Assembly (NCBI GenBank): GCA_900317845.1
Contig: ONII01000006.1
Coordinates: 15,172 to 79,171, forward strand
Source: an uncultured Bacteroidales bacterium
Lineage (GTDB): Bacteria > Bacteroidota > Bacteroidia > Bacteroidales > UBA932
DNA: 64,000 bases
Direction: 5' to 3'
Below the pieces are notes generated by a model. It was not told the origin of the DNA, did no database searches, and saw nothing but the letters and a program-made list of their open reading frames with translations. Below are positions 1,811 to 12,093 of the stretch, one piece after another. Both the position numbers and the translations under genes were made by a program. The first letter of the stretch is position 1. Each line of letters opens with the position of its first letter.

Positions 1811-3154
1811 ATGAAAACAACTGACATCATGGCACGCCTTCAGGCCAAGTATCCCTTGGAGAAGGAATATCTGCAGGCTGTGCAGGAAGTACTGGAATCC
1901 ATCGAAGAGGTGTACAACCAGCATCCTGAGTTTGAGAAAGCCAAGATTGTTGAACGGCTGGTGGAACCGGACCGCATCTTTACGTTCCGCGTTACCTGGA
2001 TCGACGACCGCGGGGAGGTACAGACCAACACCGGTTACCGCATCCAGTTCAACAGTGCCATCGGCCCTTATAAGGGCGGCCTCCGTTTCCATAAGGCCGT
2101 AACGCCTTCCATGCTCAAATTCCTGGGCTTTGAACAGACCTTCAAAAACGCCCTCACAACCCTTCCGATGGGCGGCGCCAAGGGCGGCTCTGACTTTGAC
2201 CCGGTGGGCAAATCCAACGACGAAATCATGCGTTTCTGCCAGGCTTTCATGCTGGAGCTGTGGAACTGCATCGGCCCGGATCAGGATATTCCTGCCGGCG
2301 ATGTTGGTGTAGGCGGTCGTGAAATCGGTTACCTGTATGGCATGTATAAAAAGCTGGCCCGCCAGTACAATACGGGCGTCCTCACCGGTAAGGGCGGCAC
2401 CTGGGGCGGCTCCATCCTTCGTCCGGAGGCCACCGGTTTCGGCGCCCTCTATTTCACCCAGCACCTGTTGAAGAAGGCCGGCAAGGATATCAAGGGCTGC
2501 AAGGTTGCACTCTCCGGCTTCGGCAATGTAGCCTGGGGCGCTGCTACTAAGGCCCGCGAACTGGGCGCCAAGGTGGTGGCCATCAGCGGCCCGGACGGCG
2601 TGTGCGAGATTCCGGATGGTATTACCCCGGAAATGATTGATTACATGCTGGTTATGCGTGCTTCCAACCGCAACAAAGTAGAGGATATGGCCACCAAGTT
2701 CCCCGGTCAGGCCAAGTTCACCGCCGGCAAGAAGAGCTGGAGCATCCCCGTGGACATTGCCCTGCCTTGCGCCTTCCAGAACGAACTCTCCGAGGAGGAT
2801 GCCAAGGAACTCAAGGCCAATGGCTGCTGGTGCTGCTGCGAGGTGTCCAACATGGGCTGCCAGCCCGGCGCCATCCACTTCTTCCAGCACAACGGTATCC
2901 TCTTCGCCCCCGGCAAGGCCGTGAATGCGGGCGGTGTGGCCACCAGCGGTCTGGAAATGACCCAGAACGCAGAGCACATCTCCTGGAGCGGGGAAGAAGT
3001 GGATGAGAAACTCCACTTCATCATGAAGTCCATCCACGAACAGTGCGTCAAGTACGGTACCCAGCCGGACGGCAGCGTGGACTATGTGAAGGGCGCCAAC
3101 ATCGCCGGCTTCATGAAAGTTGCCACCGCCATGCTGGAGCAAGGAACCATTTAG
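1811..3154 (+). CDS. gdhA: NADP-specific glutamate dehydrogenase
   Basis: GPYKGGLRFH, LPMGGAKGGSDFDP, DIPAGDVGVG, RPEATGFG, GFGNVA motifs. Confidence 0.96.
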   Translation: MKTTDIMARLQAKYPLEKEYLQAVQEVLESIEEVYNQHPEFEKAKIVERLVEPDRIFTFRVTWIDDRGEVQTNTGYRIQFNSAIGPYKGGLRFHKAVTPSMLKFLGFEQTFKNALTTLPMGGAKGGSDFDPVGKSNDEIMRFCQAFMLELWNCIGPDQDIPAGDVGVGGREIGYLYGMYKKLARQYNTGVLTGKGGTWGGSILRPEATGFGALYFTQHLLKKAGKDIKGCKVALSGFGNVAWGAATKARELGAKVVAISGPDGVCEIPDGITPEMIDYMLVMRASNRNKVEDMATKFPGQAKFTAGKKSWSIPVDIALPCAFQNELSEEDAKELKANGCWCCCEVSNMGCQPGAIHFFQHNGILFAPGKAVNAGGVATSGLEMTQNAEHISWSGEEVDEKLHFIMKSIHEQCVKYGTQPDGSVDYVKGANIAGFMKVATAMLEQGTI

Positions 3155-3173: not shown

Positions 3174-3206
3174 ACGGTGTCTCATGAAAATGGGGCACCG
3201 TTTTTT
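3174..3206 (+). terminator. Rho-independent terminator of gdhA
   Basis: ACGGTGTCTCAT-GAAA-ATGGGGCACCGT followed by a T run. Confidence 0.8.
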
Positions 3207-3277
3207 ATTGGTAATATGTAAGGTTATCTTACAATTAATTGCTATCTTTGCAAGCTAAACTGTATTAACCATTTTAC

Positions 3278-4876
3278 ATGAAAAAACTGGTAGTCGCGCT
3301 TTGTCTGGCATCGCTTTTCCTGGTTTCCTGCGAGCAGAAAACCAGCAAGGGGGAGCGCCTGCTGGAGAATTATGCGCTGGTAACGATTCCTGCTCCGGAC
3401 CTTTCAGGAATCACGGATAATGGAAAAGAGGTCCTGAATCTGTATCGCTTTGCGGCAGACCAGGCAGATGCCATCTATTGGGAGCAGAGCTTTGGCCCCA
3501 AGTCCACCTTCGACAATTTGCAGGATCCCGCAGAGAAGGCCTTTGTCGATGTGAACTATGGCCCGTGGAACCGTATCGACGACCAACCTTTCCTGGAAGG
3601 GTACGGCCCCAAGCCGGAAGGTTCCCGTTTTTACCCGGAAGACATGACGGATGCGGAGTTCGAGGCCCTGGCAGATCCTGCCAAGTATAGCCCGTACACA
3701 CTCATCCAGCGTGCCAATGACGGATCCCTGAAGGTGGTGTGGTATCACGACGCCTATCAGGCCCAGGTAAAAAAGATGGCCGATATCCTCCGCGCCGCCG
3801 CCGACATCACCATCAAGGAGAGTGTCCGTAACTATCTGCTCAAGAAGGCGGAAGCCCTTCTCTCGGACAACTATTACGAGAGCGAAAAAGCCTGGCTGGA
3901 GATGACGGACAGCAAGATGGACCTGGTGATTGGCCCCAACGAAACCATCGACGATGAACGGTACGGCCTCAAGGCCTCCTATGGCGCCTATGTGCTCCTG
4001 AAGAACCTGGACCGCACGGCCAGCCTCCAGTCCCTGACCTCCCGTCTGCCGGAACTGCAGGCCTCCCTGCCCGGCGACGCCATCTACCATTCTTTCGTTC
4101 CGGGTGCGGAGTCCAACATTTTCTCCTGCGATGTCATCTATTACGGCGGTTACACCAATGCCGGTTACAAGGTCATTGCCATTAACTTCCCGTACGATAC
4201 CCGCGTCCAGGAGGAATTCGGTACCCGTACCATCCTGTTCGACAATGTCATTCGCGAAAAGTTCAACCGCACCGTTTTTCCTGCCGGCATGCAGCTGTTC
4301 GAGGGCGCGGATTGCGCGCACCTGGACGCAAATGCGTTCTATTGGGGCATCGTCTTCCGCGAAGTGGCCAAGGGACTGGGCGTGAAAGAGACCATCACCG
4401 GAAAAGGCACGGTGACCGAGGCCCTGGGCAATGAGGCCCTCACCCTGGAAAAAGCCAAATCCAACGTACTGGGCGCTTACCTCTGTGCCCGGGAAGTGGA
4501 AGACCACCGTATAGACGCCCTCATCATGAAGCCGGATGTGCTGGCCACCTTTGTGGCCAATGTCATCCGCTCCACGCGCTTTGGCTTTGGTGATGCCACC
4601 GGACGCGCCAACCTGGTCATTTACAATTATTTGATGGAACAGGGGGCCATTACCCGCAAGGCTTCCGGCAAATATGGCATTGATTATGCCAAAACGGAGG
4701 AAGCCATTGCTTCCCTGGGCGCCCAAATCCTGAAACTCCAGGCCCTGGGAGACCGCGAGGCCGCTACGGAGTTCGTGAACAAGTATGCCGTTGTGGCTTC
4801 CACCATCAAGGCCGACATCGTGAACCTGGAACTGGAAAAGATACCTGTGGATATCCGTTTCACCTACGAAAAATAA
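3278..4876 (+). CDS. Lipoprotein of the DPP III/M49-like family with degenerate zinc site (probable pseudopeptidase)
   Basis: Lipobox LFLVSC; family motifs NYGPWNRID, GANFYP-like GSRFYPEDMT, DLVIGPNE, IAINFP; REVAK where HEXXH is expected and EKAKS where EExKA is expected; TATCTTTG box at 3243-3250. Confidence 0.8.
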   Translation: MKKLVVALCLASLFLVSCEQKTSKGERLLENYALVTIPAPDLSGITDNGKEVLNLYRFAADQADAIYWEQSFGPKSTFDNLQDPAEKAFVDVNYGPWNRIDDQPFLEGYGPKPEGSRFYPEDMTDAEFEALADPAKYSPYTLIQRANDGSLKVVWYHDAYQAQVKKMADILRAAADITIKESVRNYLLKKAEALLSDNYYESEKAWLEMTDSKMDLVIGPNETIDDERYGLKASYGAYVLLKNLDRTASLQSLTSRLPELQASLPGDAIYHSFVPGAESNIFSCDVIYYGGYTNAGYKVIAINFPYDTRVQEEFGTRTILFDNVIREKFNRTVFPAGMQLFEGADCAHLDANAFYWGIVFREVAKGLGVKETITGKGTVTEALGNEALTLEKAKSNVLGAYLCAREVEDHRIDALIMKPDVLATFVANVIRSTRFGFGDATGRANLVIYNYLMEQGAITRKASGKYGIDYAKTEEAIASLGAQILKLQALGDREAATEFVNKYAVVASTIKADIVNLELEKIPVDIRFTYEK

Positions 4877-4891
4877 ACGTATCAATATATT

Positions 4892-6331
4892 ATGAAGTTC
4901 AATGCTAAATATATGGTATTCTTGCCGCTGGTGCTGGCAATTACCATATTCCTGTGGGCCGTCCCGGTATCCTTCTTCGGGATTGACGCCCTGACGGTTG
5001 TGCAGCAGCGCGTGATTGCCCTGTTTGTCTTTGCAGCCTTGATGTGGATTTTCGAAATTATTCCCAACTGGTCCACGTCGCTTCTTGTGATTGTGATTTC
5101 GCTGCTCACCGTGTCCAACAAGGGTATCGGCCTGTTCTGTGATCCGCAGTACGGAACGCTCGTCCCTTACGGCCGTATCATGGCTTCCATGGCGGACCCC
5201 GTGGTAATGCTGTTCCTGGGCGGCTTTGTGCTGGCTATCATGGCCGAGAAATACGGGCTGGATGTTACCCTGGCCCGCGCCCTCCTAAAACTGTTCGGCA
5301 CCAAGCCGGAAATTGTGCTGCTGGGTTTCCTCATCATGATTTCCGTGTTCTCCATGTTCATGAGCAACACGGCTACCGCCGCCATGATGCTGGCCCTGCT
5401 CACTCCGGTGCTTTCCAAGCTTCCGGCCGACGATAAAGGCAAGATCGGCCTGGCGCTGAGTATCCCCGTGGCCGCCAACCTGGGCGGTATCGGCACGCCC
5501 ATCGGTACGCCGCCCAATGCTACTGCCAAGGGCGCCCTGGAGCAGGCCGGCATTGACGTGAGCTTTGGCGAGTGGTGCGTTCACATGATTCCCTACGTGA
5601 TTGTGATGATTGTGATTGCCTGGATTCTCCTTCGCGTCATGTTCCCGTTCAAGACCAAGAAACTGGTGCTGGAGATTCCCGAAAGCCAGCAGAAGAAAGA
5701 CTGGAAACTGTACGTGGTATGGATTACCTTCGTGGGCACCATCCTGCTGTGGGCAACCGAGCAAATCACCCACATCAACTCCAATATTGTGGCTCTTATC
5801 CCGCTGGGCGTGTTCACTGCAACCGGCCTGTTCGGCAAGGAAGAAATCAAGGAGATTAACTGGAATGTGCTGTGGCTGGTAGCCGGTGGCTTCTGCCTGG
5901 GTTACTGCCTGCAGGACACCGGTCTTGCCAAGGTGCTCATCCAGGCCATTCCGTTCGGCAGCATGAGCGTAGTGCTGGTGCTGGTGGTGGCCGGTCTGGT
6001 GTGCTACCTGCTGAGTAACTTCATCTCCAACTCTGCTACGGCAGCACTGCTCATCCCTATTCTGATTGTGGTTGCCAACGGCATGGCAGACCCTGAAGCT
6101 GCCAACAACGCGGAGTTCCTGGCTCTGGGTGGCACTTCCGCCATGATTATCTTCATCGCCGTGTGTGCTTCCATCGCCATGCTGTTCCCCATTTCCACCC
6201 CTCCGAATGCCATCGCTTCCGCTACCGGCATGGTGGATACCAAGGATATGACCCGCGTGGGCCTGGTGATTGGTCTTATCGGCTTTGTGCTGGGCTATTT
6301 CTGGTTAACTAAACTTTTCCCGTTTGCTTAA
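4892..6331 (+). CDS. SLC13/DASS family anion transporter
   Basis: Many hydrophobic helices; SMFMSNTAT, GTPIGTPPN, FISNSATAA and PISTPPNAI motifs. Confidence 0.92.
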   Translation: MKFNAKYMVFLPLVLAITIFLWAVPVSFFGIDALTVVQQRVIALFVFAALMWIFEIIPNWSTSLLVIVISLLTVSNKGIGLFCDPQYGTLVPYGRIMASMADPVVMLFLGGFVLAIMAEKYGLDVTLARALLKLFGTKPEIVLLGFLIMISVFSMFMSNTATAAMMLALLTPVLSKLPADDKGKIGLALSIPVAANLGGIGTPIGTPPNATAKGALEQAGIDVSFGEWCVHMIPYVIVMIVIAWILLRVMFPFKTKKLVLEIPESQQKKDWKLYVVWITFVGTILLWATEQITHINSNIVALIPLGVFTATGLFGKEEIKEINWNVLWLVAGGFCLGYCLQDTGLAKVLIQAIPFGSMSVVLVLVVAGLVCYLLSNFISNSATAALLIPILIVVANGMADPEAANNAEFLALGGTSAMIIFIAVCASIAMLFPISTPPNAIASATGMVDTKDMTRVGLVIGLIGFVLGYFWLTKLFPFA

Positions 6332-6364: not shown

Positions 6365-6379
6365 CAAACTAGAAACCCG

Positions 6380-7678
6380 ATGAAAAAATTATTCATTCTT
6401 ACATTGGCAGCGCTGCTTACCGGCAGCGCCGCTTTTGCGCAGGACGCTCCCGTAGAGGAAAAGCCCTCGCACTTCAAGCTGTACGGCTTTGTCCGTAACT
6501 ACCTGGCCGCCGACAGCCGTGCCGTTAAAGCCGGTACGGAGGACCTGTACTTTTACATGCCCCAGGACAAGGAGATGTCCAAGGGCTTCGACAGCAATGG
6601 CGAATTCAACTGGCGTTTTGTTTCCCTGACCACCCGCCTGGGCCTGGACGTGTCCGGTTACAAGTGGGGGAAGATGGGTATCGGCGCCAAAGTGGAGGCG
6701 GACTTCTACTACCTTAGCGGGTCCGTTCCCACCCTACGCCTGCGCCAGGCCTTTGTCAAGCTTAACTGGGACGACAGCCGCTGGGCCCTCACCCTGGGCC
6801 AGACCTGGCACCCCATGGCCGTGGATATGCCCCATATGAACAACCTGGAAACCGGCGCTCCCTTCAATCCCTTCAACCGCAGCCCGCAGGCCCGGGTAGA
6901 CCTTTCCCTGGGTGGTGGTTTCAGCCTCACCGCCAGCCTCCTGTATCTGAACCACTACCTGCCCACCGGCCCGGACGGCAAGAGCAAGGATTACTTCAAG
7001 TATGGCCTGCCGGAGTTCTACTTTGGCGCCAGCTTCCAGAATGAGCATTTCCTGGCCCGCGTGGGCTTGGATATGGTCAATCTTCGGCCCTACCGTTCGC
7101 ACGCCGACTGGCGTGTGCAGGGAGACAATCCTCCCACCATCCAGGTGAAGAGCCTCCTGACCACCGTTTCCCCGTTCGCCTTCTTCCAGTATACCAACGG
7201 AAAGTTCCAGCTGCGCGCCAAGAGCATCCTGGGCCAGGGCGGCGAGCACCTCAACATGCTCTCAGGCTATGGTATCCACAGCCTGAACAATGACGGCACC
7301 ATCACCTATACCCCTATGCAGGACTGGGCTTCTTTTGTGAGTGTCTCTTACGGCAAAAAGATCCAGGTAATGGGCATGCTGGGCTACATGAAGCAGCTGG
7401 GTACCACCCAGGACCTTCTGGATAATCAGTTGTGGCTCAATAATTCTGCCGATACCCGCATCCAGCAGGCCTTCCGCGCCACGCCCACCATCGCCTGGAA
7501 CCTGGGCAAGTTCACCGTGTCGCTGGAGTACAACCTCACCGCCGCTCAGTTCGGCAATACCAAGGCCGCCGGCTTTGCCGCCGACGCAGCCCGTAACGCC
7601 CGCGGCATGTTCGCTCCCGCCGATATGCACTGGATTGTGAACCACCGTCTCATCTGCATGACCAAGTTTAATTTCTAG
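6380..7678 (+). CDS. DcaP-like outer membrane porin
   Basis: Signal peptide, FKLYGFVR, TTRLGLDV, VEADF, LRLRQAFV, LGQTWHPM motifs, terminal Phe. Confidence 0.72.
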   Translation: MKKLFILTLAALLTGSAAFAQDAPVEEKPSHFKLYGFVRNYLAADSRAVKAGTEDLYFYMPQDKEMSKGFDSNGEFNWRFVSLTTRLGLDVSGYKWGKMGIGAKVEADFYYLSGSVPTLRLRQAFVKLNWDDSRWALTLGQTWHPMAVDMPHMNNLETGAPFNPFNRSPQARVDLSLGGGFSLTASLLYLNHYLPTGPDGKSKDYFKYGLPEFYFGASFQNEHFLARVGLDMVNLRPYRSHADWRVQGDNPPTIQVKSLLTTVSPFAFFQYTNGKFQLRAKSILGQGGEHLNMLSGYGIHSLNNDGTITYTPMQDWASFVSVSYGKKIQVMGMLGYMKQLGTTQDLLDNQLWLNNSADTRIQQAFRATPTIAWNLGKFTVSLEYNLTAAQFGNTKAAGFAADAARNARGMFAPADMHWIVNHRLICMTKFNF

Positions 7679-7698: not shown

Positions 7699-7731
7699 AG
7701 GGACAGGATGATTGGCCTGTCCCTTTTTTTT
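7699..7731 (+). terminator. Rho-independent terminator after the porin gene
   Basis: AGGGACAGG-N8-CCTGTCCCT followed by T7. Confidence 0.82.
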
Positions 7732-7768: not shown

Positions 7769-9136
7769 ATGGGCGCATTTCATGCATATGACATTCGCGG
7801 AATCTGGGGGAAAGACTGGAACCTGGAAGACGCATATAAGGTGGGATACTTCATCCCCGAACTCCTGAAGACCAACAAAGTGCTGGTAGGCCGCGACTGC
7901 CGCCTCTCCGGCAAGGATATCCACGACGCCCTCATCAAGGGCATTACGGATGCCGGCGCAGACGTAGACGACATTGGCTACAGCTCCACGCCGCTGGTGT
8001 ACTTTGGCACCGCCAACTACGGGTACAAGGCATCGGTCCAAATCACCGCTTCCCACAATCCGCCGGAGTACAACGGCATGAAAGTGAGCCGTGAGAACGC
8101 TCTTCCCGTGGGCCTGGACACCGGCTTGGGCCAAATCAAGCAGTGGATCGACGAAGGCCGTCCCACGCCGCCTGCCGCCAAGAAGGGTTCGGTGAAGGAG
8201 ATTGACATCAAGCCGGACTACATTGCCTTCCTCAAAAAGTTCAAAGGGGACTACTCCAACCTGAAGATCGCCTTCGACCTGTCCAACGGCATGGCCACCC
8301 TCTTTGCCAAGGAAATCTACAAGGGAGAAAATGCCACTTATCTCTTTGACGAGATGGACGGCAGCTTCCCCAACCATGAGCCCAACCCGCTGGTAGCCAA
8401 GAATGTAGAGCCGCTCAAGAAACTGGTGGGAGAAATCAAGGCCGACATCGGCGTCATCTATGACGGCGACGCAGACCGCGTCATGTTCGTGGACGACAAA
8501 GCCCGCTTTGTGGCTCCGGACCTGGTGATTGCCCTTATGGCCCGCTATTTCTGCGACGAACGGGGAGAGAAGAATCCGCGCGTGCTGCAGGAAATCCGTT
8601 CCAGCCTGGCCGTGGCGGAGGAACTCCGCGCCAAATACAATGCGGACGTTCACACCTGGCGTGTAGGGCGTGCTTTCGCTGCTCCCAAACTTCGTGAAAT
8701 TGACGGCCTGTGGGGCGGTGAACTGGCCGGCCACTATTATTTCAAGGACTTCTTCTACAGCGACAGCGGCATGCTTGCCAGCATCATCGTCCTCAGAATC
8801 GTGAGCGCCCTCAAGAAGCAGGGTATCAAGCTCTCGGAGGAGATGGACCGCCTTACCAGGTATGAGAACTCCGGCGAAATCAACTACAAGGTAGAGGACA
8901 AGAAGGGCGCCATGGATGCCGTAAAGGCCCATTTCGAAAGCAAGGAAACGCCCACCAAGGTGATGGACTTCGACGGATACCGTCTGGAATTCCCCGGCTG
9001 GTGGTTCAACATCCGTCCTTCCAATACGGAGCCTTACCTCCGTTTCATCTGTGAGGCTACCTCGCAGGAACTCCTGAAAGAAAAGATTGCCCAGGCGGAC
9101 GCCATCATTGTGGGTCAGTTCGGCGGCAAACGGTAG
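7769..9136 (+). CDS. Phosphomannomutase/phosphoglucomutase
   Basis: AYDIRG, TASHNP active-site Ser, DGDADR metal loop, GELAGH, RPSNTEP; TATATTTG box 7734-7741. Confidence 0.95.
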   Translation: MGAFHAYDIRGIWGKDWNLEDAYKVGYFIPELLKTNKVLVGRDCRLSGKDIHDALIKGITDAGADVDDIGYSSTPLVYFGTANYGYKASVQITASHNPPEYNGMKVSRENALPVGLDTGLGQIKQWIDEGRPTPPAAKKGSVKEIDIKPDYIAFLKKFKGDYSNLKIAFDLSNGMATLFAKEIYKGENATYLFDEMDGSFPNHEPNPLVAKNVEPLKKLVGEIKADIGVIYDGDADRVMFVDDKARFVAPDLVIALMARYFCDERGEKNPRVLQEIRSSLAVAEELRAKYNADVHTWRVGRAFAAPKLREIDGLWGGELAGHYYFKDFFYSDSGMLASIIVLRIVSALKKQGIKLSEEMDRLTRYENSGEINYKVEDKKGAMDAVKAHFESKETPTKVMDFDGYRLEFPGWWFNIRPSNTEPYLRFICEATSQELLKEKIAQADAIIVGQFGGKR

Positions 9137-9139
9137 CGG

Positions 9140-10186
9140 ATGAAGAAAAGAATTGCACTTTGTTTAGCGGCTGTGTGTGCCTGTGTGCCTGTTTTCGGGC
9201 AAGCACAGGACCACACGGCCGATTCCCTGCGTCATATCTTTGGCCGGCAGGAGGTGAAAACCAACACCCGCATGGGCACCAAGTATGCGGATACGCTGGA
9301 TACCGGGAATCCGGCTGTCAAGGTGGTGCTGTACGACAATGGCACCTATCGGTACGTAAAGGACCCCTCTGCCGTAGCCGATACCACCTTGTTCACGGAG
9401 TTCTGGGACGAGCGTGCAGTAAACCCGTATCATCAGTCCCCGGATCCTATTCCGGACCAGTTCTCCATTTGGGTGCTGGATTCCCTGGATACCTATTGCT
9501 GTCCCTACCAGACTACCGTTCGTTCCAAGTTCGGGTATCGCCACGGCCGCCGGCACCAGGGCGTAGATTTGCCCTATCCCACCGGTACGCCCGTTCCGGC
9601 CGCTTTTTCCGGCAAGGTCCGTATTTCGGACTATGTGGGAGGCTACGGCAACCTAGTGGTTATACGCCATGCCAGCGGCCTGGAAACCTTCTATGCCCAT
9701 CTGTCCAAGCGCAACGTAAACACGGGGGATTGGGTGAGCGCAGGCGATATCATCGGCCTTGGCGGCTCTACGGGGCGTTCCACCGGACCGCACCTGCATT
9801 TCGAAACCCGTTACCGGGGGGCGGCATTCGATCCTTCCTGGCTTATCGACTTTGAGACCGGCACGCTGCGGCATCGCCTGCTCAAAGTGCGCAGCTGGTA
9901 CTTCAATCCCAACCAGCGCTATGTCCAGAACGTGGACGACGAAGACGAGATTTTCCGTACGGATGAGGAAGACCGCATCCTGGCAGAGCAGAAAGCCAAG
10001 GAAGAGGCTGCTGCCCGCGCCCGCGCAGAGGCTGCTGCGCAGAAGTACCATACTATCCGCAGCGGCGACACCTTGTCCGGCATCGCCAAGAAGTATCATA
10101 CCACGGTAAGGCGCATTTGTGCGCTCAATCCCGGCCTTACGGAGAGGACGGTGCTCAAGCTGGGCCGGAAAATTCGCGTGCGCTAG
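9140..10186 (+). CDS. M23 family peptidase with C-terminal LysM domain
   Basis: HQGVD, YAHLS, STGPHLHFE motifs; HTIRSGDTLSGIAKKY LysM. Confidence 0.92.
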   Translation: MKKRIALCLAAVCACVPVFGQAQDHTADSLRHIFGRQEVKTNTRMGTKYADTLDTGNPAVKVVLYDNGTYRYVKDPSAVADTTLFTEFWDERAVNPYHQSPDPIPDQFSIWVLDSLDTYCCPYQTTVRSKFGYRHGRRHQGVDLPYPTGTPVPAAFSGKVRISDYVGGYGNLVVIRHASGLETFYAHLSKRNVNTGDWVSAGDIIGLGGSTGRSTGPHLHFETRYRGAAFDPSWLIDFETGTLRHRLLKVRSWYFNPNQRYVQNVDDEDEIFRTDEEDRILAEQKAKEEAAARARAEAAAQKYHTIRSGDTLSGIAKKYHTTVRRICALNPGLTERTVLKLGRKIRVR

Positions 10187-10741
10187 CTATTTGAGTTTGG
10201 AATTGTAGTGAGGATGAACTTTTCCTTTCTGTATGTTCTGCAGTTTGGAAGAGATCATCTTCTTGCGTATAGGGGCGGCATGGTCCGTGAACAGGTCCCC
10301 GTCCAGGTGCGACAACTCGTGCTGGATCATGCGGGCGGCAAAGTTGTCAAACTCCTCCGTTACCTGCTGTAAATCCTCGTTGTAGTACCGTACGGTCATC
10401 TTTTTGGGACGGACTACGTCGCAGTAGACGCCGGGAATGCTCAGGCAGCCTTCCGAATAAGTGACTTTTTCCTCGCTCTCTTCCAGAATTTCCGGGTTGA
10501 TGAGCGTGCGGCGGAACCCCTTCAGGTAATCATAGGTGTCCGACACTACGTCGCCGTCCACAATGACCACACGGAGGCTCACGCCAATCTGGGGAGCGGC
10601 CAGGCCGCAGCCGTCCGCCACCACCAGGGTGTCCTTGAGGTCTTGCACCAGGGCTTGGATGCCCGCTTTGTCACTGAGGTCTGCCGGAGCAGCCGTTTTG
10701 CGCAGGACTTCTGCGCCGTACAGGTAGATGGGTTTTATCAT
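10187..10741 (-). CDS. def: Peptide deformylase
   Basis: GCGLAAPQIG, EGCLS, QHELSHLDG motifs. Confidence 0.96.
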   Translation of the reverse strand: MIKPIYLYGAEVLRKTAAPADLSDKAGIQALVQDLKDTLVVADGCGLAAPQIGVSLRVVIVDGDVVSDTYDYLKGFRRTLINPEILEESEEKVTYSEGCLSIPGVYCDVVRPKKMTVRYYNEDLQQVTEEFDNFAARMIQHELSHLDGDLFTDHAAPIRKKMISSKLQNIQKGKVHPHYNSKLK

Positions 10742-11223
10742 TTTTTTCTTCTTGTCTTGTTCATGGACAAACTGTCGGGTACGGCCGAAGGGTCTACGCT
10801 CAGGGTGCCGCCGTTTTCCCGGTCCAGGTAACTTTGCAGGATGATGGCGGCCGATATCTTGTCCACTTCCTTTTTGTCCCGGCGCTGGGAGGCTTTCATG
10901 CCGCCGTCTATCATGATGCGGTGGGCCAGCACGGATGTAAACCGTTCATCTTCAAGGGTGACGGGCGTGTCCGGGAATGCTTTTTCCAGTTGTTTCAGGA
11001 AGGCTTGCACGTCCCCAAGGGCCTCCGAAGGGCTGCCGTTCATGTTTACCGGGTAGCCCACTACAAAGCGAAGGATTCTCTCGCGGATGGCGTAATTTTT
11101 GATATAATCTATTAACTTTGTAGAATCAACTGTTTCCAGGGCAGATGCAAAGATGCCAAGAGGATCACTGACCGCCAGGCCGGTTCTCCTTTTTCCGTAG
11201 TCTATGCCAAGAATTCTGTCCAT
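10738..11223 (-). CDS. ruvX: Holliday junction resolvase-like/pre-16S rRNA nuclease YqgF (RuvX)
   Basis: ILGIDYGKRRTGLAVSD, DERFTS, VDKISAAIILQSYL. Confidence 0.94.
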   Translation of the reverse strand: MDRILGIDYGKRRTGLAVSDPLGIFASALETVDSTKLIDYIKNYAIRERILRFVVGYPVNMNGSPSEALGDVQAFLKQLEKAFPDTPVTLEDERFTSVLAHRIMIDGGMKASQRRDKKEVDKISAAIILQSYLDRENGGTLSVDPSAVPDSLSMNKTRRKK

Positions 11224-11250
11224 TTACAGTTTGCAAATATACGAATAATT

Positions 11251-12093
11251 ATGGATAAAGCAGATAAGAAGGCCAGTAACTTGCGTCTCACCCTGTTGGA
11301 TGCCACCTCCCATGAGCGGCTCTGGAGTCTCCGGTTTTCCCGGACCCACTTCATCATTGCCAATATCTCCCTGGTTGTGGTGGTGTTCCTGGCGATTTTC
11401 TGCCTTATCGCGTTTACGCCCATCCGCACCTTCATTCCCGGTTACCCCAACGCCCAGTCACGCCGGCAGGCCGTCCAGAATGCGCAGCGTATAGACTCGC
11501 TGCAAACGCGCATTCTGCAGTGGGAACTGTATACGGAAAATCTCAGGCGCGTGGTGGCGGGGGAGGACCCCATTCGTCTGGACACCCTTATGCTGGGCCG
11601 GGAAGGCTCGCGGGTGGTGTCGGATGCCCGCTACCTGGCCATCCGGGATTCCCTGCTTCGGGCCGATGTCGTCCAGGAAGAGCAATTTGGCCTGTCGTCT
11701 GCCCGGCGGCGGAACCTGCCCATCGAGGCAATGGCCTTCTACACGCCCGTAAAGGGGGTTGTTTCCAAAGGCTTCGACCGCAGTCTGCATCCCTGGGTGG
11801 ATGTTACGGCGCCCGTGGGCAGCCCGGTGATGGCGGTCCTGGATGGGAGTGTGGTATATACCTCCTGGTCGCAGGACAGTGGCTACACCCTGGTGCTCCA
11901 GCACGGAAGCGACCTTCTGTCCATTTACAAGAACAACCAAAAGCTGCTTCACAAAACCGGAGATGTCGTAAAAGCCGGCACGCCGGTGGCCATGCTGGCA
12001 TCGTCCACCTCGCTTACAAAAGGGGACCACTTGCATTTTGAGCTGTGGTACAAGGGCGTGGCTGTGGATCCGGCACAGTACATAAAATTTTAA
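11251..12093 (+). CDS. M23 family peptidase-domain membrane protein
   Basis: N-terminal TM segment, coiled coil, C-terminal M23 domain ending HLHFELW; typical position upstream of dxr. Confidence 0.85.
   Translation: MDKADKKASNLRLTLLDATSHERLWSLRFSRTHFIIANISLVVVVFLAIFCLIAFTPIRTFIPGYPNAQSRRQAVQNAQRIDSLQTRILQWELYTENLRRVVAGEDPIRLDTLMLGREGSRVVSDARYLAIRDSLLRADVVQEEQFGLSSARRRNLPIEAMAFYTPVKGVVSKGFDRSLHPWVDVTAPVGSPVMAVLDGSVVYTSWSQDSGYTLVLQHGSDLLSIYKNNQKLLHKTGDVVKAGTPVAMLASSTSLTKGDHLHFELWYKGVAVDPAQYIKF

Follow-up and report, generated by a model that had tools for sequence, protein, structure and literature searches.

A DPP III homologue with a replaced zinc site as a probable non-catalytic partner of anion carriers in rumen and gut Bacteroidales

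We analysed a 64,000-nucleotide stretch of DNA from an uncultured Bacteroidales bacterium (assembly GCA_900317845.1, contig ONII01000006.1, positions 15,172 to 79,171; hereafter the window), in which an uninterrupted open reading frame on the forward strand encodes a predicted lipoprotein of 532 amino acids, related to the DPP III zinc peptidases of family M49. Proteins of this kind with an arginine at the first zinc-binding histidine are called R-type below and the intact enzymes H-type, while CaDPP III refers to the DPP III of Caldithrix abyssi (PDB entry 6EOM). The features of the gene are as follows, with the residue counts of intact enzymes taken from a thinned set of 44.

3278-4876, + strand: R-type DPP III-like (M49-derived) lipoprotein, 532 amino acids, predicted to be catalytically dead (homology, motifs and AlphaFold2 fold)
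3278-3331, + strand: signal peptide and lipobox L-V-S-C18 (sequence analysis)
3947-3949, + strand: I224, at the position of the catalytic tyrosine Y242 of CaDPP III (Tyr in 44/44 intact enzymes, never in R-type proteins)
4193-4195, + strand: Y306, at the position of the substrate-binding N324 of CaDPP III (Asn in 44/44 intact enzymes; Y, F or H in R-type proteins)
4358-4372, + strand: R361-E-V-A-K365, in place of the zinc motif HExxH (phmmer alignment)
4445-4462, + strand: L390-E391-K392-A-K394-S395, in place of EExKA(D), with the zinc-ligand glutamate changed to lysine (phmmer alignment)
4598-4600, + strand: T441, at the position of the conserved histidine H460 (region 5) of CaDPP III (His in 44/44 intact enzymes; L, T or V in R-type proteins)

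When the sequences of the PDB were searched with phmmer, CaDPP III (6EOM) aligned with residues 4-529 of the lipoprotein (E 1.1e-72) and the Corallococcus DPP III (5ZUM) with residues 30-530 (E 2.8e-67), with the long DPP III of Bacteroides thetaiotaomicron as a weaker match. The M49 profile PF03571 was the only Pfam match and was barely reached (21.5 bits at a cut-off of 21, residues 148-330), the NCBIfam scan gave no meaningful match, and DctP, TAXI and TctC were not matched in either Pfam or NCBIfam. An AlphaFold2 model of the lipoprotein (44 sequences) had a mean predicted local distance difference test score (pLDDT) of 90.6 and a predicted template modelling score (pTM) of 0.88, and superposed in Foldseek on 5ZUM with a template modelling score (TM) of 0.89 and on 6EOM with one of 0.84; for the B. 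thetaiotaomicron DPP III, it came nearer to the closed state (0.79) than to the open one (0.63). The full-length homology and the two-lobe fold of an M49 family member are therefore both present (phmmer, Foldseek). The lipoprotein is like the short secreted DPP III enzymes 6EOM and 5ZUM in its length (these proteins have ~530-560 amino acids), in its N-terminal signal with a cysteine and in its two-lobe fold, and at 28-30% identity and TM 0.84-0.89 it has kept E362, E391, K394, N303 and many structural residues. It differs from them in that the zinc ligands, the tyrosine, the substrate-binding asparagine and the conserved histidine have been replaced and the cleft has been de-acidified; furthermore, unlike intact family members, R-type genes are linked or fused to anion carriers (see below). 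Behind the DPP III entries, the fold search ranked Fe2+/pterin-dependent PolE enzymes next (TM 0.42/0.57 at E ~1e-6; among them 9J30 and 9J2E), an unexpected structural relative of the M49 fold.

In the alignments REVAK falls onto HEISH of 6EOM and HELMH of 5ZUM, and EKAKSN onto EECKAD and EEAKAD, respectively. As the zinc ligands of CaDPP III are H379, H383 and E412 (PMC5805324), all three have been replaced in the lipoprotein (His to Arg, His to Lys and Glu to Lys), and with full-length homology (E 1e-72) this residue correspondence is not a matter of chance. The general-base glutamate (E362) and E391 are retained, and when counted along the 6EOM alignment several other CaDPP III positions are changed as well (E326 to T308, D310 to Y292, E254 to G236 and D416 to N396). 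An intact HExxH elsewhere in the protein was ruled out by a motif search of all 532 amino acids, which hold four histidines in total and no other HExxH-like motif. The lipoprotein thus lacks the sequence signatures of M49, namely HExxGH/HExxH, EExR/K-A-E/D, and the tyrosine and histidine of regions 1 and 5. An earlier note on this DNA, made from the letters alone, had described an intact gene for a DPP III/M49-like lipoprotein, in which the three zinc ligands read R361, K365 and K392 and the general-base glutamate was kept. The 532-amino-acid frame, the lipobox and the full-length homology bear this out, the 6EOM and 5ZUM alignments show the reading of the ligands to be exact, and E362 indeed lies on the glutamate of HEISH and HELMH. 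The same note had suggested that the protein is non-catalytic, which is supported by the loss of the three ligands together with the catalytic tyrosine, the substrate asparagine and the transition-state histidine, and had named two findings which would speak against this: an intact HEXXH/Glu triad elsewhere, which was not found in the protein, and close orthologs with HEXXH, for which the answer is that the motif is kept only by intact enzymes which are less closely related (43-45% identity) and lie at other loci. These data support the view that the lipoprotein would no longer bind zinc or cut peptides. On another contig (L002:697-2742), the source genome also encodes a long DPP III lipoprotein of the canonical kind, in which the HECLGH and EEARAD motifs are intact.

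Pairwise comparisons of the gene with ten orthologs gave ratios of non-synonymous to synonymous substitution (dN/dS) of 0.08-0.17 at a dS of 0.7-2.3, and the codons of R361, K365 and K392 vary synonymously among orthologs. The best 120 clusters of the protein search were 71-100% identical to the lipoprotein; among these 120, a simple motif pattern caught the first motif as R-E-x-x-K/Q in two-thirds, and the second motif was present as E-K-x-K in every cluster. Reading frames were intact in the 93 R-type genes surveyed. That the altered site does not represent decay, as the earlier note had also proposed, is strongly supported by the low dN/dS, by more than 160 R-type clusters and by the intact predicted fold.

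The wider comparison covered 152 genes, drawn from genomes in the order and family of the source organism and from 80 loci retrieved with an Arg-type protein alignment; in a larger set of short-M49 proteins, the Arg type made up 165 of the 369. At nine key positions the signature Y-N-H-E-H-E-E-D-H was found in 59/59 H-type genes, and in 93/93 R-type genes the first histidine was an arginine and the tyrosine, the asparagine and the last histidine had all been lost. R361 and E362 are invariant across these 93 genes, position 365 is mostly H (K or Q in the subclade of the window gene), and position 392 is mostly E (K in derived lines). In a maximum-likelihood tree the R-type genes form a single clade, with a Shimodaira-Hasegawa-like approximate likelihood ratio (SH-aLRT) support of 100, which lies within the H-type enzymes of the bacterial family to which the window belongs. 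H365 and E392 are retained in the basal R-type lines, the K/K (or Q/K) group that includes the window gene is a late branch beside the fused forms, and E392K is seen in several separate branches. From this tree the R-type clade has a single origin, and together with the residue states of the basal lines it places the predicted loss of the catalytic apparatus at the root of the clade, and the appearance of the two lysines later. As only R361 is invariant, with 365 mostly H and 392 mostly E, any function common to the clade would predate the two lysines. The R/K/K triad was therefore ruled out as an ancestral functional site, K365 and K392 being derived in both the residue survey and the tree. 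Of the cationic pocket which the earlier note had read from these three residues, the arginine thus holds for the entire clade, whereas the lysines are late and lineage-specific.

By our own count there are 74 R-type loci in ~70 assemblies, and the genes were found in rumen and gut Bacteroidales metagenome-assembled genomes, including Candidatus Cryptobacteroides and 'Alistipes sp. CAG:514/435'. A lipobox is present in 77/88 unfused R-type proteins, with few acidic residues after the cysteine. Surface exposure was rejected as the default location, since an acidic export signal is absent behind the lipid-anchor cysteine and the topology of the fused forms (see below) points to the periplasm. 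Outside the R-type clade, about one third of 150 representative short-M49 proteins (50% identity clusters) are without HExxH/EE in other ways (e.g. Y-E-x-x-D/E/N, W-E-x-x-N or Q-E-x-x-R), and the zinc site may have been lost many times in the short-M49 family. For the degenerate Y-E-x-x-D/E/N lineage, a search across the phylum with the query P0151 returned intact enzymes only.

The chemistry of the cleft was compared at 20 positions which are zinc ligands, catalytic residues or substrate contacts of CaDPP III (list from PMC5805324). The mean net charge of these positions is -7.1 in H-type proteins, -2.6 in early R-type proteins and -0.2 in the group of the window gene, and the charge of the whole protein varies only from -17 to -20 across H-type and R-type. 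Several polar cleft contacts have become aromatic or aliphatic in R-type proteins (N to Y/F, S/G to I/V/Y/F, and T to V), and the residue corresponding to D310 is often a lysine. Conserved residues that are specific to the R-type are few, namely R361, R317 and T372.

The neighbourhood of the gene in the window contains the following features.

1811-3154, + strand: gdhA, NADP-type glutamate dehydrogenase (Pfam ELFV_dehydrog; NCBIfam NF010633, 798 bits)
3174-3201, + strand: intrinsic-terminator-like hairpin and T-run ending gdhA, the upstream boundary of the predicted operon (12-pair stem, then TTTTTATT)
3243-3250, + strand: TATCTTTG, a match to the Bacteroidetes -7 consensus TAnnTTTG, 27 nucleotides before the ATG (sequence reading)
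4892-6331, + strand: DASS-family sodium-coupled anion symporter, 479 amino acids (TIGR00785, 243 bits at a cut-off of 198.6; Pfam Na_sulph_symp/CitMHS)
6377-7678, + strand: outer-membrane beta-barrel porin, 433 amino acids, with a signal peptide and a C-terminal phenylalanine (AlphaFold2 model, fold search)
7699-7724, + strand: terminator-like hairpin and T-run closing the predicted three-gene operon (hairpin search)

The DASS gene starts 15 nucleotides past the lipoprotein gene and the porin gene 45 nucleotides past the DASS gene; judged from this layout the three genes are one operon, with gdhA lying outside it in the source genome. TAnnTTTG is the -7 promoter consensus of Bacteroides and other Bacteroidetes, and the box upstream of the lipoprotein gene is a putative promoter. 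The best PDB matches of the DASS protein were yeast PHO90 (5.6e-38) and VcINDY (4e-36), and the protein has the hairpin-tip motifs of the family (SNT at residues 158-160 and SNS at 379-381), in keeping with its assignment to DASS. In VcINDY, a succinate carrier, such motifs are carboxylate- and sodium-binding elements (PMC7553777). The porin had no match in Pfam or among PDB sequences (phmmer), and its AlphaFold2 model is of moderate confidence (pLDDT 72.7) and shows a porin-like barrel, for which the best fold match was DcaP of Acinetobacter baumannii (6EUS, E 7.7e-12, TM 0.51/0.62); other trimeric 16-strand porins, both general and anion-selective (Omp32), scored almost as high. The window porin may resemble DcaP, a dicarboxylate channel, in its fold, and it is placed beside a dicarboxylate-type carrier, but it had no match at the level of sequence to any PDB chain or Pfam family and the fold match comes from a moderately confident model. 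The downstream housekeeping genes (7769-12093) are syntenic with those of relatives and encode a phosphoglucosamine/phosphoglucomutase-type mutase, an M23-LysM peptidase, peptide deformylase, RuvX and a second M23 peptidase.

Across relatives, a carrier gene was found within 300 nucleotides of 83/85 R-type genes with sufficient flanking DNA and of none of 47 H-type genes. The carrier belongs to DASS in 64 cases and to the AspT/YidE/YbjL family in 19 (Pfam Asp-Al_Ex; YidE equivalog, 648 bits), and the two genes of a pair are nearly always on the same strand, with gaps of 3-50 nucleotides. The only two R-type genes without a carrier were located beside a LysR regulator (L097) and beside a group II intron reverse transcriptase (L111). 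The arrangement of the system varies. Next to the partner-DASS-porin order of the window there are loci with partner and DASS genes followed by a Porin_4/Porin_O_P barrel, which replaces the DcaP-like barrel without detectable homology to it (L033, L072, L073, L081, L085, L102, L137 and others), and three loci have both porin types together (L073, L085 and L137). As read from these loci, the porin of the system is subject to non-orthologous replacement; the family of the window porin itself recurs beside the system at 37-72% identity. In five loci two divergent R-type paralogs, one K/K and one H/E, flank a single DASS gene (L063, L075, L077, L094 and L123), and in two loci the order is partner-DASS-YidE-partner, with two carriers and two partners in one cluster (L082 and L100). 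These varied arrangements speak for a functional tie between the R-type proteins and the carriers, as does the involvement of two carrier families that are unrelated to each other. Some R-type genes have a LysR-type regulator divergently upstream (L063:4015-4908 and L097:4974-5858), as in substrate-induced transport operons.

The gdhA gene adjoins the system in many relatives, and has been inverted repeatedly among close relatives: the window, L067 and L068 have it on the + strand, L032-L034 and L069-L071 on the opposite one. One relative also has a 2-oxoacid:ferredoxin oxidoreductase near the locus. In five genomes of the same genus which contain only the intact enzyme, there is a gdhA-DASS-porin locus without an R-type gene (L167-L171 in G422, G434, G006, G394 and G269), and in one of these (L169) the DASS gene starts 7 nucleotides after gdhA, which suggests that glutamate dehydrogenase may be co-transcribed with the dicarboxylate carrier there. 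From these sister loci it appears that the R-type gene was added to a pre-existing pair of carrier and porin, and the close tie to glutamate dehydrogenase would fit a dicarboxylate that feeds glutamate synthesis (2-oxoglutarate, or succinate as its precursor). The intact genes of these sister genomes are at other loci without carriers, which rules out the window gene as their positional ortholog.

The association between R-type protein and DASS carrier also takes the form of gene fusion. In a genome of the same genus (L038), a single frame of 994 amino acids encodes a DASS carrier followed, right after its last hydrophobic helix, by an R-type domain without a signal peptide. Such DASS::R-type fusions form 14 protein clusters (983-1004 amino acids, 54-91% identical to the L038 fusion) from NCBI, ENA and Logan assemblies, and the same architecture was present at four further genomic loci (L066, L087, L130 and L133). 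An assembly artefact was ruled out by these 14 clusters from three sources and five genomic loci. In VcINDY the end of transmembrane helix 10b is on the cytoplasmic surface, and the residues after helix 11 are listed among the extracellular/periplasmic surface changes (PMC7553777). With this topology of the carrier C-terminus the fused R-type domain should be periplasmic, matching the lipoprotein form, and the R-type partner would be extracytoplasmic in both.

Taken together, we think it fairly probable that the R-type protein is a non-catalytic periplasmic partner of anion carriers, probably a dicarboxylate receptor. A secreted short-form DPP III (M49) zinc peptidase would have become a periplasm-facing lipoprotein which kept the two-lobe clamshell, and which, from the linkage and the fusions, would serve anion carriers of the inner membrane as their dedicated partner. 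The porin would admit a small organic anion, for which C4-C5 dicarboxylates (e.g. succinate or 2-oxoglutarate) are the most probable candidates, and the cleft of the dead peptidase, now de-acidified, would capture it; the best candidate for a carboxylate anchor there is the invariant R361, successor of the first zinc histidine. The anion would then be handed to the DASS carrier, or its uptake would be gated there. Such a role for R361 would parallel that of the conserved arginine which binds the carboxylate in TRAP binding proteins (PMC4646407). The two lobes of M49 enzymes close upon ligand binding (PMC5805324), and this lobe closure fits a receptor. For the anion binding which the earlier note had suggested there is indirect support in the shared operon with a DASS symporter and a porin, in the 83/85 R-type genes beside DASS or AspT/YidE carriers, in the fusions to DASS and in the loss of about 7 negative charges from the cleft.

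Several points weigh against this proposal. The proposed ligand is guessed from the range of substrates in the partner families and from the nearby gdhA, and an inorganic anion may be bound instead, since the phosphate carrier PHO90 was the nearest PDB match of the DASS protein, about equal to VcINDY. Neither DASS nor AspT/YidE carriers are known to need binding proteins, and the sister loci without an R-type gene imply that the partner is generally dispensable for this type of DASS carrier. The genes counted are kin, so that 83/85 overstates the number of independent observations, and with so few R-type-specific conserved residues the sequence does not mark out a new binding site clearly. The protein might instead be a non-catalytic accessory which does not capture substrate, for example one which stabilises, gates or regulates the carrier or which tethers porin and carrier to each other; its basic residues would then only fill the metal site and neutralise the retained glutamates. 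Linkage and fusion fit any obligate partner and not a receptor alone, the sister species function without the protein, position 365 can be K, Q, H, R or M and position 392 can be E, D, K or T, as expected for space-filling, and R361 could simply occupy the vacated metal site and pair with the invariant E362 and E391. We nevertheless hold such an accessory to be rather unlikely, as the change in charge spans the whole substrate cleft and not just the metal site, the two unrelated carrier families have anionic substrates in common, two paralogs flanking one carrier are typical of receptors with different specificities, and E392K arose repeatedly.

An enzyme with changed chemistry, either metal-independent or using another site, which releases a periplasmic anion for the adjacent carrier, would account for the invariance of E362 and E391 and for the early members which retain two of the three ligands (H365 and E392), and operons of enzymes and transporters are common. 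It is nonetheless improbable, because the catalytic tyrosine, the transition-state histidine and the first ligand are gone in every R-type member, and because the subclade of the window gene is without all three ligands yet has the same partners and is under the same selection; the lipoprotein contains no other metal motif, and there is no clade-specific candidate nucleophile among the conserved residues. The loss of all catalytic residues would also be expected of a decaying peptidase relic without present function, but we give this hardly any credence, as it is contradicted by the dN/dS values, the 93 intact frames, the confidently predicted fold, and the conserved synteny and fusions.

As a carrier-associated receptor, the R-type protein would resemble the TRAP (DctP, TAXI), TTT and proposed TAXI-GltS systems, in which an extracytoplasmic, often lipid-anchored two-lobe protein is encoded beside an elevator-type anion carrier and translationally close to it, with fusion of the two in some species, and the alternation of lipid anchor and carrier fusion is a known pattern for substrate-binding proteins. 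Unlike these systems, the R-type partner is derived from a peptidase and is unrelated to DctP, TAXI and TctC, and sister species use the carrier without a partner. A further likeness is to EnvC and NlpD, which are degenerate LytM (M23) factors that no longer have zinc ligands and serve as partners of other proteins: here too a zinc peptidase fold without metal ligands is kept under selection with a proposed partnership in the envelope, but the peptidase family is a different one, the partners are transporters instead of amidases, and for EnvC and NlpD no small-molecule ligand has been proposed. The TAXI-GltS proposal was built on the same argument of linkage and fusion, and the TRAP membrane component and DASS have the same fold (PMC12344293).

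Textbooks treat the DASS (SLC13-type) and AspT/YidE carriers as secondary transporters that work alone, and text searches of the literature turned up no article in which inactive M49 homologues are partners of transporters or in which DASS carriers have binding proteins. The R-type proteins may thus represent an unrecognised class of binding-protein-assisted secondary transport, in which a lipid-anchored or fused pseudopeptidase clamshell acts as receptor for DASS and AspT/YidE carriers and, together with an anion porin, forms a three-tier route by which rumen and gut Bacteroidales supply glutamate synthesis with succinate or 2-oxoglutarate, a possibility which we put forward tentatively and rate at somewhat less than even. 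If true, this would extend the recruitment of binding proteins by elevator-type carriers (TRAP, TTT and TAXI-GltS) to an entirely different fold. The clade also offers a natural series from metalloenzyme to pseudoenzyme, in which the change from histidine to arginine and the loss of the tyrosine, asparagine and histidine came first and that of the remaining ligands after, with intact sisters and both unfused and fused forms on hand for comparison. The hosts are abundant and mostly uncultured rumen and gut Bacteroidales, and the system may bear on how they scavenge dicarboxylates for nitrogen assimilation.

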